Position numbers and translations under genes: made by a program. Of a stretch of DNA of 64,000 nucleotides, positions 46,328-54,168 are shown one piece after another; the stretch's first letter is position 1; the number at the start of each line of letters is the position of its first letter. The notes beneath the pieces are model-generated. The model saw only the letters and a list, made by a program, of their open reading frames with translations, did no database searches and was not told the origin of the DNA. The stretch covers positions 5,824,001-5,888,000 of the forward strand of contig OZ244207.1 of NCBI GenBank assembly GCA_965216875.1, given 5' to 3'. Source of the stretch: Rubripirellula sp. (GTDB lineage Bacteria > Planctomycetota > Planctomycetia > Pirellulales > Pirellulaceae).

Positions 46328-46513
46328 GTTATGCCCCAACAATAGGTTCTGTGTTTTTCGTGTCATTTCGATAACTCAACGACATGACCTTATCATCTGT
46401 TGCCCACGTGTACCAAACTCGATTCTTGCAAACGTGTTATCCTTTTTCCACATCGCATGCCTGAGGCCATCGCCGAGTCTTGCGTCAGAGTCTTTCCCAA
46501 TCATTCCGAAAGC

Positions 46514-47380
46514 ATGAGTACGAAGAAACCCAAATCAAAGGCAAAAGCCAAGCCCTTGAAGTGTCATCTCATTTCCGTCGGCGCCGGCAGTCTGGTGTGG
46601 CAAATCGTTCACGCGGTGATGGGCCAGTACCCCACCGTGAAGTCACAGCTCGTCACGCACGCGTTTGTCGACACAGCGAAGAAGGTCGAATCAACGCTCA
46701 AGAAGGTTCGCGGCAAGAATGTTTGCGTTTTCCATGCGTTACTCGATTCGGAAGCGAAAGCGAAGGTCACCGAATACTGCCAAGACCGCGGAATCCCTGA
46801 ACACGACATGACCGAACAGTTGCTGGGCTTCGTCACTGGAATCACTGGCGTCGAAGCAAGCAATGACCCATCCGAGGAACTTGACGATGGCTATTTTCGT
46901 CGGCTCGATGCACTTGAATTCACATTACAGCATGACGATTCGCGGCGTCTTGAATCCATTAGCGATGCCGACATTGTTGTGGTTGGACTGAGCCGAGTGA
47001 GCAAGACGCCGACGTCTTGTTACCTGGGCAGCATGGGGTTTAAGGTCGCCAACGTATCACTCGTTCCCGAGATCGGACTTCCTAAAGAGCTCAAGCGAGG
47101 CATGAAGAAGAAGGTGGTCGCCTTCACGATTCAACCCAAACGCCTTCAACAGATTCGTTCGCGTCGCATGCAGGTCAACAAGTTCGACGCCACGCTACCG
47201 GCCCCGGAAGACGATGGTGAATTCAACTACACGAGCTTGAAGAGCATCATTCGCGAAGTGATGGACGCCGAAGCGATCTACCGCGACCGCGAGTTTCCGA
47301 TCATTGACATCACCGACCATACGGTCGAGGCGACAGCGACCACCGTCCTGCAACAACTCAATCTACAACGCCCCGAGTGA
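46514..47380 (+). CDS. ppsR: Pyruvate,phosphate dikinase / PEP synthase regulatory kinase-pyrophosphorylase (DUF299)
   Basis: YFRRLDALEFTLQHDD, ADIVVVGLSRVSKTPTSCYLG..GFKVANV, IDITDHTVEATA. Confidence 0.85.
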   Translation: MSTKKPKSKAKAKPLKCHLISVGAGSLVWQIVHAVMGQYPTVKSQLVTHAFVDTAKKVESTLKKVRGKNVCVFHALLDSEAKAKVTEYCQDRGIPEHDMTEQLLGFVTGITGVEASNDPSEELDDGYFRRLDALEFTLQHDDSRRLESISDADIVVVGLSRVSKTPTSCYLGSMGFKVANVSLVPEIGLPKELKRGMKKKVVAFTIQPKRLQQIRSRRMQVNKFDATLPAPEDDGEFNYTSLKSIIREVMDAEAIYRDREFPIIDITDHTVEATATTVLQQLNLQRPE

Positions 47381-47407: not shown

Positions 47408-47547
47408 GGGGACAGAGCACCTTCGTCACCTTAGCGGGGTCGGCGCACTCACGCCCGGGGACAGAGCACCAGTTTTCGTTTGTTTTCCAATCTCACCCGA
47501 TTTTCCGGGGGACAGAGCACCTCAACCCTACCTCGGGGACAGAGCAT
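47408..47547 (+). repeat. Left array of the 13-bp motif GGGGACAGAGCAC (5 copies)
   Basis: Copies at 47408, 47436 (3 mismatches), 47457, 47508, 47535 (1 mismatch). Confidence 0.9.
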
Positions 47548-47695
47548 GATTGTTTGATTTGATGTTATTGACGGTCGATACGGGTCGTTGTCCAATAACT
47601 TTTCCCGTCGAGATCGAAGAGCGATCCCATCGACGCCAGCGAACTGGCTCATCAAGACGAGCTCCAGTCGCATTCTTCTTTTTTGGGGCTCTTCG

Positions 47696-48748
47696 ATGAG
47701 TAGGTGTTCTCGCCGTGATGTGTTTGATCCCGCCGAGGTCAATGTAGCTCACATCATCAATCGCACAGTGCGAAGGTGCTACCTTTTTGGCCACGACCAA
47801 CTAACCGGTACAAACTTCGACCACCGAAAGGAATGGATTGAAGAATTACTTGAGCATTTCGCGGCCAACTTCGGCATCGACCTGCTCTGCTTCGCGATCC
47901 TTTCGAACCACTATCATCTCATCCTGAGGACGCGGCCGGATGTTGTGGCCACGTGGGACGACACCGAAGTGGCTCGCCGCTGGCTAATGATCTGCCCTCA
48001 TCGCAAAGTCGATGGCAGACCAGCAGAACCGAGCGAATCAGAGTTGAACATGATTCGCCATTGCCCGGACAAACTTGCTGAGATTCGTAAACGGTTGTCT
48101 GATCTCTCGTGGTGGGTACGGCTGCTGAATCAACGCGTAGCCCAGCGAGCCAACCGCGAGGAAGCGGAACATGGCCGATTTTGGCAAGACCGATTCAAAG
48201 CCATACGTATTGTTGACGAAGAATCGTTGCTCGCATGTGCTGCCTACGTTGAACTGAATCCGATTCGGGCGGCGATTGCCGAAACGCTCGAGGACAGCGA
48301 CCACACTTCAATCCAACGTCGCATCAATGCCGAGTTTTCACAAGTGGCGGCGAAAGATGAAGACTCACGCAGACATTCGCAAGATTTCCTCGCTCCACTA
48401 ACCCTCGCAGAACAGGCTGGGGACGTCGGTCCAATGCCAAGCCATACGAAGCGCAGGTGCAGCGACAAAGGGTTTCTGGCAATCGACATTGAAAGCTACA
48501 TTGAACTGCTTGAGTGGACAGCTTGTAAATCAGTGCAACGCGAACGCGGTGCCACAACTGTCTTTATACCGTCGATCCTTGGGCGTTTTCGAATCGAGCC
48601 ACGCAGTTGGCTGGAGCTCGTTCTAGCCTTCAGCAAAACCTTCCCGATGGTCGCTGGCCGCTGCGATCGAGTCGACGGTCTACGGAGTAACGAAACCGGT
48701 CGCCGTTTTCGCGTGACCCCCAACGCAAGACGCCTGCTACCCGCCTAG
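47696..48748 (+). CDS. HUH Y1 transposase-like nuclease (RAYT/TnpA-REP, IS200-related)
   Basis: HIINRTVRR, FAILSNHYHLIL (HUH), GRFWQDRFK, AAYVELNPIRA (catalytic Tyr + NP), SDHTSIQRR; start ATG 47696. Confidence 0.88.
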   Translation: MSRCSRRDVFDPAEVNVAHIINRTVRRCYLFGHDQLTGTNFDHRKEWIEELLEHFAANFGIDLLCFAILSNHYHLILRTRPDVVATWDDTEVARRWLMICPHRKVDGRPAEPSESELNMIRHCPDKLAEIRKRLSDLSWWVRLLNQRVAQRANREEAEHGRFWQDRFKAIRIVDEESLLACAAYVELNPIRAAIAETLEDSDHTSIQRRINAEFSQVAAKDEDSRRHSQDFLAPLTLAEQAGDVGPMPSHTKRRCSDKGFLAIDIESYIELLEWTACKSVQRERGATTVFIPSILGRFRIEPRSWLELVLAFSKTFPMVAGRCDRVDGLRSNETGRRFRVTPNARRLLPA

Positions 48749-48882
48749 CTGCCTTCTCACAATAGCCGTGCCACATCTACCTGCTACCGGTAAGCGCAAC
48801 TTGCGGGAATAGATGCGCGTCTGCACTAGGCACTCGATATAAGTCGTGAAACGTACGGTGAGTTTGTCGATCCCACGCAACG

Positions 48883-49445
48883 GTGCTCTGGCGCCGTAAA
48901 GAGACCAGGCCAAAAACCCTCATCGGGAATCCAAGCTGCGTCGATTGCGGGAATCCGGGCCACCCGAAAGTGCACTGTCCCCAGACGAGAGGGGAGAGTT
49001 GGGTGCTCTGTCCCCGGTGGGAGGATGCTTTCGGCTCACCAGCGCGTGATGCCCGATGAAGAACTCGGGGCAAAGTGCTCTGTCCCTTGGACAGTACTTC
49101 TTGGACAGTACTTTGAGAGGATGCCTGCATCCTCCCAAAGAGACTCTGGTGCTCTGTCCCCGTCGAGCCCCGTCGAGCCGTCGCTGGTGCTCTGTCCCCG
49201 TCGAGCGCCGCTCCGTCGAGCGCAGGTAAAGTGCTATGTCCCCATTGGGAGAATGCGCCCATTGGATTTGCTCCCGCGATCCTGCCTATGCTCTGGCCCC
49301 CAACGATCCCAACGATCTCCAACGATCCTGGCCCCCAACGATCCAACGATCGGTGCTCTGTCCCCAGACGACTGTCCTGTCCCCAGACGACTGTCATCGG
49401 TGCTCTGGCCCCAGACGAGAAATGAGAGTTGGGTGCTCTGTCCCC
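48883..49445 (-). repeat. Right array of the same 13-bp motif in inverted orientation (GTGCTCTGTCCCC on +; 11 copies)
   Basis: Copies at 48883, 48970, 49003, 49075, 49149, 49187, 49231, 49288, 49353, 49400, 49433 (0-2 mismatches), spacers 20-74 bp. Confidence 0.92.
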
Positions 49446-49461
49446 GGTGGGAGGATGACTC

Positions 49462-49493
49462 AACGCAGGTGTCCATTTACGATCACCTGCGTT
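49462..49493. terminator. Hairpin, possible terminator downstream of the spondin-domain gene
   Basis: AACGCAGGTG / CACCTGCGTT perfect 10-bp stem with 12-nt loop, 30 bp beyond the stop codon; no clear U-tract. Confidence 0.45.
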
Positions 49494-49523: not shown

Positions 49524-52500
49524 TCAAAACAGGCTTCCTGTCTCGAGCAGCACCAACTCATCCTCGCTTTCTTCCAAGAAACCTCCGTCGCCAAACGCGG
49601 CGATTGCAGCATCGACGGCTTCGGCTTCACTCCTCGCTGCAAGACTCTCGCGTGCAAGATCGTTGATGACCAACAACGCATCGAGAGACGTGATGTCGCC
49701 GTCCCCACCAACATCAAGATCCAAACCGGTCGCCTGTGCCTCGTCAGCGATCGTCGCCTGACTGCCAAAGCGGTTTAGAAAGTTGATGACCAGCAGTGAA
49801 TCGAGCGCAGTGACTTGTCCGTCACGATTCACATCAGCCGAAAGCCGCGAATTCTGGAGACTAACACTGCGTGCCGAACAGGCTCCATCGACGCCGCTGC
49901 AAACATCTGCCTCAGGATCAAACAACAAGACAGTGATGGTCGCGATCGGCATCAACCCATTAAATGCTGATTCGAGCGTCCCGGTCGGAACCCCCGTCCC
50001 AATGAATTCGTCAAGTCCAGCGTGCCGATGAATGACGCCTCCTTCGTCGACCGAGTCGCCACCTTCGGTTGAATAGGCCGCGCCGCCCAGTGGGTCGTTT
50101 ACCTCGGTGCCAGCGTCGAGGATGTCGCGACCGTATATCGTGATCTGCCGTGCTCCCTGGAAGTTACCGAGTTCGTCGAACAACTCGTACTGCCGTGAAT
50201 TGCGATTGGCTACAAACGCATCATTCGACGGAATCACCATACTGACGAAACTGAAGAAACGATTGAGGCTCGAATCCTCCACCTCAATCACTTGTGTCGC
50301 GATCTCACCCGGTTCGATGACAGGAGCCCCCGCAAACCCTTGAGGTGCAGCGATGACGGAACTGGTACCGTCTGACTCTCCTGCAAAACGTGCAACGAGT
50401 TCGCTCGTGTCACCCTCTTCGGCAATCAACTCCAACCCACCAAATTCGGACGCCAATGCTCCTCCGCGAGCGACTTCGAACGCGCCATCGTGAAACCCTA
50501 CAAAGAAGGGCGTGAGTGCCAGTCCGCCCTCCGGCGTCAACGATTCGATCTCAACCTGCAGCCGCACGCCCACATCGACTTGAAACGCACCAACAACGTC
50601 AGACTCACTGGCTTGGCCAAGCGTATCACTCACTTCACCGGGGCGCAGATTGACGGTATACCGCCCATTGTCGCGTCCGGTGAATTGGCCGTCTTGAGTT
50701 GTCACCGTGTAGGTCGCGGTTACCGTCGTGGGTGTCGTTCCGATCGCCGCATCCGTCTCCACTGCAGTCACCGTCAACTGCCTAGCCAATGGCCCAACCA
50801 CTGCGATGTCTTCGATTCCGATCGATGTCGGGTCAATGCCAGATGGATCGCTATAGGTGACATGAACCTCGTGCGTTGTCGCCCCCGCAACCACGACATC
50901 GTCGGCCGCGACGCTGGCGGTCGGCCCATCGCTGTCGACCGGCAGCGACGTTCCATCTGTCAAACTGATTGTGATGCGTGCCAGTGGCGTATCGCTCACA
51001 AAAGCAGACTCGAGCGTTTCACCTGTCGGCAATCCGGATCCGATGAAGTCGTCCAGCCCTTGGTGCCGCGTGATCACACCGTTCTCATCCACGCCATCGC
51101 CGCCTTCAGTCGAGAAGGCAGCCCCGCCGTCCACCTGATTCAGTTCCGTTCCGGCATCCAAAACGTCGCGTCCGGTCAACGTGATCGTTTGCGTTCCCAA
51201 AAAGAAACCATCTTCATCAAACAATTCGTAGGCCCGCGCGTTTAGGTTGGCAAAGAACGCATCGTTAGATGGAATCAGCATGCTCGCGAAACTGAAGTAC
51301 CGATTCAAGTTGGTATCGAGAACCGAGAGCGTTTGTGATGCCACTTCACCAGGTTCAATGACCGGCGCGCCAGCGAATCCCTCGGGCGCGACAAGGACGG
51401 TATCGACACCACTTGATTCGGCTGCAAACCGAGCAACGACACCCGAGACATCCCCTTCTTCGGCGAGTGCCTCCAAACCACCAAACTCGGCGGCGACAGC
51501 GCCGGCTCGAGCAAGTTGGAAGTTGCCCTCATGCACGCCCACCCAGAACGGAGTTTGTGCCAAGCCCCCTTCGGCTGCGAGATTCTCGACAGTGATTGTC
51601 AGTTGCACGGGCACCAACACCTGTAATGATCCAAGCGCTTCCGCGGTAACTTCGTTTCCAAACACGTCACCCACTTCGCCATCAGCCAATGTGATCGTGT
51701 ATAGCCCGTTGTCAAAAGTCGAATACGGATCGCCGTCGGCGGTTGCGATTTGGTAGGTCGCGGTCACTGTTCTCGGATCGGCAGTGTCAGCGTCCGTGGT
51801 GACACCGACCACTTCGAGTGGTTCGTTGAACAAGCCAGTCACTTCAATGTCGCGGGTGTCGATGGTTGAAACGTCGACACCCGAGGCATCGCTGTAGGTC
51901 ACGCGCACCTCATGCGTGTTTGCACCGGGACTCATCAAGTCGGTGATGTCCGCGTTTGCGGTCGGTGCCTTATCGTCAATCGCATCGGCGGGCGCGTCCG
52001 CAAGACTGATCGTGATGCGTCCGATCGGCGTCATGTTGCCAAATGCCTGGCCAAGCGTCCCCGTTGGGACTCCGGTTCCGATGAATTCATCCAAGCCGTC
52101 ATGGCGTCTGATAACGCCACCCTCATCCACCGATGTTCCCCCTTCGGTACTGTAGGCAGCGCCGCCGCCAACCTGGTTCACTTCAGTGCCGGCATCCCAG
52201 ATATCTTGTCCATAGAGCGTGATCGTGCGAGCGCCCGTGAAGTTGCCCGACCGGTCAAACAGCTCAATACCACGGGGGTCCAGGTTCGCAATGAATGCGT
52301 CGTTGGATGGAATCACCATGCTCGCGAAACTAAAAAATCGGTTTCGCTGCGGATCGCTCACGTCAAACGCTTCAAGTACCGACTCACCTGGCTCGAACAC
52401 AGGGGCTCCAGCGAATCCGTCGGGGGCAAAGATGACGGTCGCATCGTTCCCCGTCTCGGACTCGAAACGTGCGACCAATTCACTCGGATCACCATCTTCG

Positions 52501-53813
52501 GCGATCAGTTCCAAGCCTCCAAAATCACTCGCAACGCCGCCTGCACGAGCGACTTCGAAGTTGCCATTGTGAACACCGACAAAGACCGGCGTCTGCGCAA
52601 GCCCACCGAGTTCCGACAAGTTTTCAAACGTAACGTTCAACCGCACCGGAGCGTCTACGGTGAACTCACCAAGTCGTTGTTCAGCAGCTGTATGCGCAAA
52701 AGTGTCACCCACCTGGTCACCTAGCAATACGACGCTGTAGATACCATTGTCCAAATGCGTAAACGATCCCGAGTCGGGCGCGACACGATACGTTGCAACA
52801 ACTTCGCGCGGCGTCGTCCCGGCCGCTGCGTCCGTGGTCACAGACAAGACATCCAGCTGAGTCAAGAAAGGACTCGTCACGCGCAGATTGCTTGGCGTGA
52901 TGCTCGTCAGATCGATTCCCGATGGATCGCTGTAGGTGACCGCAATCTCGTGGTAGTCAGCGCGTTGAGTCAGATCGCTCGCGTCGAATTGCACACGAGG
53001 AGCCGTCGCATCGATCGGGTCGCTCGGGTTTGAGGCTTGAGAAATCGTGATTCGTGCAATCGGCGTCTGGGACTGGAACGCGCGTCCAAGTGTCTCGCCT
53101 GTAGGTAACTCCGAACCGATGAAGTCGTCCAGGCCCGTGTGTTGAGCGATCACGCCATTTTCGTCTGCCGACGTGCCACCCGCTGTTGCGAACGCCGCTC
53201 CGCCGGCTGGATCATTCACCTCAGTCCCAGCATCCCATACCTGCGAGCCGTAGACGACAATCGTTTGAGGCCCGAGGAAATCGCCCGAACTGTTGAAGAT
53301 GCGATAGGCTTGCTGGTTCAAGTTACCAATGAACGCGTCGTTGGACGGAATCAGCATCGAGGCAAAGCTAAAGTACTGACTCTGCAGTGGATCATCGACG
53401 GTGAACTGTTCGGTGACGACTTCGCCAGCCTCGAACACGGGCGCTCCCGCGAAACCATCCGGCGCCAAAACCACCGCATCGTTGCCAACGCCATCGGCCG
53501 CAAATCGAGCGACAAGTTCACTCGGATCACCTTCTTCGGCAATGAGTTCAAGCCCACCGAAATCGGATGCCGCAGCACCGAGATCTCCCAAATCGAAGCT
53601 ACCGTCATGCGCCGCGATCCAAACGGGCGTGTTCCCCAAACCTGTTTCCTCGGACAGGTTCTCGATGCTGATCTGTAACACCTCCGCAGCCAACAAGCGT
53701 CGACGTTCAAGCGATTCGAGATTCAGCTTGCGTGAGTTTGTTTTGCGATTGGAAGATTGATTAGACAAGCCGGAACGACGCGCCGATTTAGCGCGGGCAA
53801 AAAGCGATCTCAT
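49524..53813 (-). CDS. Large surface protein with four spondin_N-like domains, three Ig-like spacer domains and a dockerin
   Basis: RKLNLESLERRRLLAA; four TP.(W/F)V..H.G.F..LE.(I/L)AE.GD..SF.SM.IPSNDAF..DAGTE.N units; three V.VTYSD.SG.D..ATY..DNG.Y units; ADVNRDGQVTALD/DVGGDGDITSLDAL; start moved to ATG 53813. Confidence 0.88.
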   Translation of the reverse strand: MRSLFARAKSARRSGLSNQSSNRKTNSRKLNLESLERRRLLAAEVLQISIENLSEETGLGNTPVWIAAHDGSFDLGDLGAAASDFGGLELIAEEGDPSELVARFAADGVGNDAVVLAPDGFAGAPVFEAGEVVTEQFTVDDPLQSQYFSFASMLIPSNDAFIGNLNQQAYRIFNSSGDFLGPQTIVVYGSQVWDAGTEVNDPAGGAAFATAGGTSADENGVIAQHTGLDDFIGSELPTGETLGRAFQSQTPIARITISQASNPSDPIDATAPRVQFDASDLTQRADYHEIAVTYSDPSGIDLTSITPSNLRVTSPFLTQLDVLSVTTDAAAGTTPREVVATYRVAPDSGSFTHLDNGIYSVVLLGDQVGDTFAHTAAEQRLGEFTVDAPVRLNVTFENLSELGGLAQTPVFVGVHNGNFEVARAGGVASDFGGLELIAEDGDPSELVARFESETGNDATVIFAPDGFAGAPVFEPGESVLEAFDVSDPQRNRFFSFASMVIPSNDAFIANLDPRGIELFDRSGNFTGARTITLYGQDIWDAGTEVNQVGGGAAYSTEGGTSVDEGGVIRRHDGLDEFIGTGVPTGTLGQAFGNMTPIGRITISLADAPADAIDDKAPTANADITDLMSPGANTHEVRVTYSDASGVDVSTIDTRDIEVTGLFNEPLEVVGVTTDADTADPRTVTATYQIATADGDPYSTFDNGLYTITLADGEVGDVFGNEVTAEALGSLQVLVPVQLTITVENLAAEGGLAQTPFWVGVHEGNFQLARAGAVAAEFGGLEALAEEGDVSGVVARFAAESSGVDTVLVAPEGFAGAPVIEPGEVASQTLSVLDTNLNRYFSFASMLIPSNDAFFANLNARAYELFDEDGFFLGTQTITLTGRDVLDAGTELNQVDGGAAFSTEGGDGVDENGVITRHQGLDDFIGSGLPTGETLESAFVSDTPLARITISLTDGTSLPVDSDGPTASVAADDVVVAGATTHEVHVTYSDPSGIDPTSIGIEDIAVVGPLARQLTVTAVETDAAIGTTPTTVTATYTVTTQDGQFTGRDNGRYTVNLRPGEVSDTLGQASESDVVGAFQVDVGVRLQVEIESLTPEGGLALTPFFVGFHDGAFEVARGGALASEFGGLELIAEEGDTSELVARFAGESDGTSSVIAAPQGFAGAPVIEPGEIATQVIEVEDSSLNRFFSFVSMVIPSNDAFVANRNSRQYELFDELGNFQGARQITIYGRDILDAGTEVNDPLGGAAYSTEGGDSVDEGGVIHRHAGLDEFIGTGVPTGTLESAFNGLMPIATITVLLFDPEADVCSGVDGACSARSVSLQNSRLSADVNRDGQVTALDSLLVINFLNRFGSQATIADEAQATGLDLDVGGDGDITSLDALLVINDLARESLAARSEAEAVDAAIAAFGDGGFLEESEDELVLLETGSLF

Positions 53814-54168
53814 TTCGAATCCGAGAGGCAGGCGACATGAAGGCTGAAAAGATAACTGCCACGAAATGAGCTTCGAATAAGCGCGCCCGCCACGATTTGG
53901 GATGAAACATTCGCACGAAAAACATGCGAATCGAGCGTTGCGCTCGCCGCCCAAAAACGCCCTCCTCGCTGCCAAACGTTAGCGAGCAAACATGAAGACG
54001 AGCCAACCGTTCGCTGCGATACACACGGCCGTTTTATCGTCGATGTTTCTCACGAACATGCGTGCGCTGGGTGGCTCAGATGGTCCTAGTAAAGATCCGC
54101 GCGCCGACACCTGCGTGATCGACTTTTTCTGAAGCCCGCAAAAAAAGTCGTCGAAGATTCGCCGCTGC

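Follow-up and report, generated by a model that had tools for sequence, protein, structure and literature searches.

A putative IS-like element with a TnpA-Y1 subclass 2.3-type gene and arrays of largely re-copied junction DNA in Rubripirellula

The window analysed here, i.e. the whole 64-kb stretch of DNA from the closed, 8.26-Mb genome of Rubripirellula sp. (G000), contains what is probably an IS-like, single-strand transposon, made up of a Y1/HUH gene of the subclass 2.3 type and of two arrays of largely re-copied junction DNA that its own enzyme is likely to have written by rounds of nicking, extension and rejoining. The components are already known, because the protein has subclass 2.3 signatures and the repeat matches the TIRYT consensus; what we have not found in print is the mobility of the whole element and ends that grow by themselves and log the sites visited, and a search of the openly accessible literature turned up no account of subclass 2.3 in which elements move or have stuttering ends. 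It is quite possible, without being the reading we would stake most on, that subclass 2.3 constitutes an unrecognised family of autonomous insertion sequences and the first mobile members of the RAYT class, with short non-hairpin ends, inverted or direct, and an enzyme that writes arrays logging its sites and capturing host DNA.

RAYT-class Y1 enzymes are described as sessile and domesticated, and subclass 2.3, in the accessible text of Quentin 2018 (PMC6006769), appears without a described DNA substrate. The loci collected here supply this subclass with a candidate substrate, a short motif that is not a hairpin, together with sequence evidence of whole-element movement and a footprint matching the BIME amplification model of 2012. 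They open to direct test, with one gene and one 13-mer, the question of how bacterial repeat families arise and spread through Y1 enzymes, and of whether RAYTs have mobile elements as their ancestors. If the reading is true, subclass 2.3 would record DNA naturally and would show, in a living system, how REP/BIME-type repeat families originate. An HUH enzyme with cutting and joining activity next to a short linear motif might also find use as a tool.

The Y1/HUH gene and its surroundings

The gene (47696-48748, + strand) is, as the first-pass annotation had claimed, intact and encodes a 350-aa HUH protein with the subclass 2.3 signature, comprising an NHYH motif (H72 at 47909-47911, H74 at 47915-47917) and a YVELNP motif (Y184 at 48245-48247). 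H72, H74, Y184 and N188 are invariant across 74 homologs. Homologs of the window come mostly from Pirellulaceae. The sole Pfam match at E up to 0.01 is Y1_Tnp (PF01797), with a score of 25.1 against a cut-off of 23, and the RAYT equivalog NF047646 scores 44.9, below its cut-off of 80. While a sequence search of the PDB returned nothing significant (E 0.1-0.5), comparison of the AlphaFold model (pLDDT 88.7) with solved structures gave E. coli TnpA-REP (4ER8) as the best fold match (Foldseek E 5.8e-4; Z 11.6, rmsd 3.1, 160 aligned).

Judged by its NHYH and Y---NP motifs, its length and its spacing of 112 aa between histidine and tyrosine, the protein fits TnpA-Y1 subclass 2.3. The same spacing is found in Alteromonadales homologs, and it is 62-89 in four short RAYT-like rows; the accompanying homolog tree is a quick version from which the G142 rows are absent. 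Model helices at positions 81-134, within the His-to-Tyr stretch, match the ~55-aa insertion between beta3 and alphaC of the subclass, which is also defined by a 10-aa beta1-alphaA insertion and a C-terminal domain of its own, according to the accessible text of Quentin 2018 (PMC6006769); the model shows a loop at 30-43 and a 160-aa tail, candidates for these two features. Further likenesses to the subclass as it is presented in the accessible part of the same paper are NHYH with YV[DE]LNP in a long protein (350 aa; median 325) with a big insertion between HuH and Tyr, the presence of several copies per genome, homologs in Alteromonadales and the lack of REP-like hairpins beside the gene. Unlike in that account, the genes studied here come with end motifs and arrays, and with near-identical copies at unrelated sites.

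The gene lies between a PSRP/ppsR-family kinase-pyrophosphorylase gene on the left (46400-47380, + strand) and a gene for a Spondin_N/dockerin planctomycete extracellular protein on the right (49524-53975, - strand), both outside the element, and neither tnpB nor cas is among these immediate neighbours, which agrees with the earlier claim. The PSRP/ppsR-family gene is patchy in the family, with hits in 11 of the 121 genomes searched and a nearest relative at 52%. The Spondin_N gene product is 1483 aa long, consists of repeated Spondin_N-like units and a dockerin tail, and is matched at 60-64% in G012. Between the array and this gene, at 49462-49493, lies a 10-bp inverted repeat that, judged by eye, may serve as the gene's terminator.

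The 13-mer and the composition of the window arrays

The 13-mer GGGGACAGAGCAC was found 15 times at two mismatches or fewer in the 64-kb window, every time inside 47408-49445, against 1.48 copies expected and with 0 of 100 shuffles reaching 15. The copies face inward, all 4 upstream lying on the + strand and all 11 downstream on the - strand; a count of five upstream copies had been given, of which matching of the 13-mer recovers four, while the eleven downstream copies stand, the one at 48883 being weak. The left array (47408-47547, + strand) consists of four copies of GGGGACAGAGCA(C/T), starting at 47408, 47457, 47508 and 47535 and separated by spacers of 36, 38 and 14 nt. Its innermost motif (47535-47547, + strand) is the probable left end of the conserved core, as the paralog alignments begin there, and in each of the three close paralogs the start codon follows it at a distance of about 160 nt. 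The leader that follows (47548-47695, + strand) is kept among these three paralogs and contains TTGAC, and in a promoter scan of it no sigma-70-type site passed. On the other side, the weak copy (48883-48895, - strand, 2 mismatches) is the one closest to the gene end, and the right array proper (48970-49445, - strand) holds 10 copies at two mismatches or fewer and two truncated ones (49328, 49377), all facing the gene. The description of the motif as non-hairpin holds, in that the 11 motif contexts folded have no hairpin in common and Rfam has no match for the window arrays.

The spacers between listed copies are irregular, ranging from 14 to 74 nt (sd 17), and the two arrays differ in what fills them. 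On the right, local same-strand repeats of at least 8 nt account for 224 of the 346 non-motif bases, a proportion that averages 11% in random genome windows and that 0 of 300 such windows reach, and on the left the corresponding count is 0 of 88, i.e. there is no local templating. The spacers had been called mostly unique and 8-74 bp long; uniqueness is retained for the left array and lost for the right, and the lower bound becomes 14 nt. Within the right array, a 58-bp two-motif unit (inner copy 48970-49027) recurs at 91% at the outer edge (49400-49457), and a fold-back at 49111-49140 comprises a spacer with its flank word and the reverse complement. From these repeats, the right-array spacers appear to be largely local re-copies of words adjoining the motif.

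A sequencing artefact was considered as the source of the pattern and rejected, because the genome is closed, four sequencing runs hold 0.99 of the words and the pattern recurs in many independent assemblies.

When the 13 spacers were searched by BLAST against the host genome, we obtained internal duplicates only and otherwise matches of 11-24 nt at E above 0.01; phage records gave no match for the right array and one of 26 nt (E 0.7), located in the leader, for the left region. The earlier proposal that the arrays capture outside DNA is not supported, there being no phage match and no real distant host match among these spacers, and the companion proposal that they record repeated strand-joining fares well: they do look like such a record, with spacers that are mostly re-copied junction DNA. 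This also bears on a CRISPR-like memory, in which the nuclease would take up foreign DNA as spacers for later targeting. The repeat-spacer appearance, the uniqueness of the left spacers and the ~190-240 nt taken up between motifs in G142 (see below) speak for such a system, but we regard it as largely refuted and very improbable, since the DNA captured in G142 is the adjoining host flank, the phage search gave no more than the leader match, the spacers are irregular and lack an Rfam match, no effector gene adjoins, and homologs number one, partial, in viral contigs and none in phage records. CRISPR-Cas arrays differ from those of the window also in their regular periodicity and unique foreign spacers, and in the cas genes that, like tnpB, are absent from the immediate neighbours here.

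That the arrays are still changing is suggested by a conspecific strain (~99% identical; run X5), in which the element occupies the identical site and the arrays differ, with five length changes within arrays and one elsewhere across 5.1 kb. The left array of X5 is longer by one full and one truncated copy, the extra unit being spliced from two adjoining units, and its right array has three deletions relative to the window. The differences are mainly losses of units and are read from single contigs, although the joints overlap by no more than 23 and 10 nt. In the paralog region L104, X5 is mostly without cover and offers no clean joint; runs X6-X8, with scattered short pieces only, and X11, X12 and X15, with none, were left out. 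X5 has other homologs of the gene, at ~87% identity and in different surroundings.

A search of relatives for an empty ppsR-to-spondin site, which the first-pass annotation had proposed, found none: no syntenic pair turned up, with ppsR homologs present in 1 genome of a set of 5 and in 11 of a set of 121, 0 of the 11 ppsR loci examined have the gene or the motif within ~1.5 kb, the nearest spondin match lies elsewhere, the site in X5 is filled, and H18 runs off into unrelated DNA. Nothing in the window's own genome points to recent movement, the close paralogs there being 77-78% identical and the site identical in X5; the window copy looks like an older, vertically inherited insertion.

Copies, sites and array units in relatives

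Homologs were found in 18 of the 30 related genomes searched and, class-wide, in 11 of 150 genomes at E 1e-40 or better. Several of these genomes hold sets of near-identical genes (98.6-100%), with 9 and 3 members in G001 (an 84%-complete assembly of 30 contigs that may mix strains), 5 in G002, 7 and 6 on a single closed contig of G142, and 2 (L062/L063) in the clade of the window itself. Outer flanks were compared for three families and show no similarity between copies, and each copy carries a different array, with the motif as its boundary; the core shared by the nine G001 copies spans innermost motif to innermost motif, from about -152 to +1301. As the relatives are near-identical copies at unrelated sites, they are likely to be transposons and appear to move as whole elements.

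Inward-facing motifs delimit both ends in 12 of the 12 own-clade loci examined, a set that excludes L060 and L100 for their short flanks and L066-L075 as partial or distant. Every family has its own motif variant, and there is no G4 run in those of G002 (GTGCCACC) and of Pseudoalteromonas (GACACCCA). The end motifs are direct, not inverted, in the set of five from G002 (L037-L041) and in those of seven and six from G142 (L083-L095), which stutter alike. In these direct-end families the downstream end keeps the strand sense of the inverted families. Perfect fold-backs are found next to the motif at the right ends of L084-L086 and L089, as at window positions 49111-49140, and could convert a direct end into an inverted one.

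The sole empty sites come from Pseudoalteromonas, in which a 31-35% homolog is located between icd and ilvI in two filled records with differing arrays and is missing from two empty ones. We saw no target duplication by eye, and none is called from these records because, at 80-87% identity, the empty and filled ones are too diverged. In Pseudoalteromonas the orthologs, with a gene identity of 83%, have stayed at a single site. A Pfam scan of 40 out of 50 candidate flank frames revealed no gene split by an insertion.

The units of the arrays consist of a piece of the element end and a few bases immediately outside it. At right ends in the own clade, pairs of copies from one array agree in all 6 nt outside the motif in 35 of 109 cases, against 0 of 794 for pairs from different arrays, and left ends give 88 of 203 against 33 of 1282; for the right ends of the nine G001 copies the counts are 71 of 140 and 0 of 806. 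As kin are not independent, these pair counts overstate significance. The shared outside word is 7-12 nt long in 152 of 248 copies, and the part on the inner side of the motif varies. Of the 189 units that were parsed, just 12 can be read as simple duplications by one jump (0-2 nt overlap); most are multi-jump mosaics, which fit sloppy polymerase switching no less than clean rejoining.

Some older junctions can be followed directly. L062 and L063 have 1910 bp in common, including a nested older left end, and in G142 the loci L086 and L089 carry ~190 nt and ~240 nt, respectively, of the L084 flank, with a new motif as the cap, and the outer right motif of L089, L083 and L087 continues into left-end sequence. 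From this carry-over, we take the arrays to be a partial log of former junctions and not of invaders. When outermost and innermost units are compared with the present flank, by hand count, the outer one is the better match in 14 arrays and the poorer in 5, with 8 ties, so that an outer-newer polarity is a tendency only. Left arrays of the nine G001 copies match their own flank (at least 7 nt) at 0.10 and the flanks of others at 0.14, in a test in which several array edges were misplaced. CAAAC stands beside the motif in all of these left arrays and may be a target or carried flank, and pairs of copies have inner units in common. L023, L043 and L021 contain tandem duplications of part or all of the element, hundreds of bases long, which form the long end of the array stutter.

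A candidate mechanism, known systems and gene-less clusters

The mechanism that we propose extends to a linear motif, by analogy, the BIME scheme of Ton-Hoang et al. (PMC3333891), the accessible text of which combines an amplification model with strand transfer by TnpA-REP in vitro. The protein would bind the motif, its putative recognition or cleavage site, on single-stranded DNA, nick the GGGG strand roughly 5-12 nt outside it and hold the 5' end on Y184; from the free 3'-OH, a host polymerase would then synthesise DNA back across the motif, over a length that varies, and the tyrosine-bound end would finally be joined to the newly made one. An abortive round would add one unit and a complete round would move the element. 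Any outer motif could serve as the next end, so that older units would move with the element and keep an approximate record of the sites it had occupied before; clusters without a gene would be footprints or non-autonomous products, and the direct-end families (the five of G002, the seven and six of G142) would suit rolling-circle copying.

Nick-extend-rejoin would account for the narrow length of the outside word and the variability of the inside part, as well as for mirror-symmetric ends and inherited flank words. It leaves unexplained how transposition would join inverted ends that lie on opposite strands, and why so few units are simple, which points to added polymerase switching. Against arrays written by the enzyme count the left spacers of the window, with none of their bases in local repeats, and the weak sharing of words in gene-less clusters.

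Much of this could also be expected if the element were mobile and its arrays passive scars, left by host replication or repair as it slips or switches templates at protein-bound or G-rich ends, with no catalysis by the transposase. The prevalence of multi-jump mosaics, the 0-2 nt overlaps of the simple units, the existence of flank-only stutters, fold-backs and long tandem duplications, and the predominance of unit loss in X5 are in line with such an origin. We nevertheless think it rather unlikely, as the stutter is anchored on the motif even where this lacks a G4 run (G002, Pseudoalteromonas), the outside word is narrow in length while the inside part varies, and DNA carried over from a flank ends, on its far side, in a new motif copy, a feature not produced by slippage alone.

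Among the closest known systems are the TIRYTs, whose repeat consensus is given as GGGG[AT][CG]A[CG] (GGGGWSAS) in the accessible text of Di Nocera 2013 (PMC3733652). TIRtrons likewise have a RAYT-like gene flanked by inverted repeats that fit GGGGWSAS, and a repeat that forms a dispersed family in the genome, theirs as singles, dimers and clusters; unlike the loci studied here, they come without stuttered arrays, flank carry-over or whole-element movement in the accessible part of that description. The accessible text of Quentin (PMC6006769) assigns 26 TIRYTs to subclasses 2.1 (20), 2.2 (4) and 2.5 (2), and none to 2.3, and those of subclass 2.1 have a C-terminal HTH tail (Bac_DnaA_C, HTH_23, HTH_28) that, by Pfam, the window protein lacks.

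With the REPtrons, TnpA-REP and BIMEs of E. coli, as covered in the accessible texts of PMC3333891 and PMC8266576, the element has in common the nearest solved fold (4ER8) and a gene amid variable arrays, and the amplification proposed for BIMEs (PMC3333891) fits the arrays of the window. Unlike in these systems (subclasses 2.2 and 2.5), there are no GTAG-footed alternating palindromes, the copies being co-oriented within each array, and REPtrons are described there as not transposing as a unit. The TnpA proteins of IS200/IS605 (IS608, ISDra2) resemble the family in their Y1/HUH fold and in multi-copy behaviour, near-identical copies at unrelated sites being present in the relatives and absent in the window's genome; they differ in having Y---Q in place of Y---NP, ~150 aa in place of ~350, subterminal hairpins in place of short end motifs, and an accompanying tnpB. 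IS200/IS605 elements insert beside a fixed target of 4-5 nt without duplicating it and pass through a single-stranded circle; the loci compared here, as assembled contigs, show no target duplication by eye. The enzymes of the IS91 type are of the Y2 kind and larger, and the ends of these elements, ori and ter, are distinct. To the IS91/ISCR rolling-circle elements, mentioned in the accessible text of PMC3333891, the likeness is in HUH chemistry and in the carriage of neighbouring DNA of variable length.

Beyond the window, the motif is linked to the gene family without being confined to the locus, as follows from its genome-wide counts and from the enrichment of GGGGACAGNGCA. GGGGACAGAGCAC has 42 exact copies in the genome and 84 at one mismatch or fewer, in 20 clusters, of which 3 (36 copies) hold the window gene or its 78% and 77% paralogs and 17 are gene-less; GGGGACAGNGCA occurs 50 times in the source genome (reversed control 3) against 0-7 times in each of 60 other family genomes. 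The motif had been reported as confined, within the window, to this one locus, which is accurate and does not extend to the genome. The flanks of homologs, with motifs in all 12 own-clade loci examined, agree with the genome scan in tying the motif to the gene family, as had been anticipated, and the idea of a self-contained system is not supported, given that 47 of the 65 genomic copies of GGGGACAGA[GC]CA sit in 14 gene-less clusters.

These clusters bring to mind a domesticated arrangement of the REPtron or TIRtron kind, with a sessile gene serving the host and the motif units as the mobile, non-autonomous part, as has been proposed for RAYT/REPIN and TIRYT/TIR systems. The wealth of gene-less motif copies, the divergence of the paralogs in the window's own genome (77-78%, 40%), the site common to X5 and the single site of the Pseudoalteromonas orthologs are what one would then expect. 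It is nevertheless improbable in our view, since G001, G002, G142 and the own clade hold near-identical genes in multiple copies at unrelated sites, and since gene-less clusters have no conserved body of at least 40 nt in common with the window element. The gene-less clusters share words weakly (5 of 94 against 1 of 987).

In addition to the 78% and 77% paralogs, the genome encodes a fourth family member at 40% (G000:C1:6117938-6118939), which has a motif of its own, GGGGACAGGCA, likewise with 65 copies. Many gene-less clusters (e.g., at 6,195,000, 6,428,000 and 6,555,000) mix GGGGACAGGCA and the window motif, often on opposite strands, and look as if elements land at one another's ends. Of 31 motif clusters, 27 lie beyond 4.9 Mb (4,935,622 to 8,124,056, G000:C1) and 4 in the first 4.9 Mb of the 8.26-Mb genome. 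A remnant of the 77% paralog at G000:C1:5624704-5625132 retains the gene tail and the right end, with an identical outside word, and three more short Y1_Tnp genes (217-236 aa frames; G000:C1:5390647, 4787954 and 1539106) are found with no cluster of either motif adjoining.
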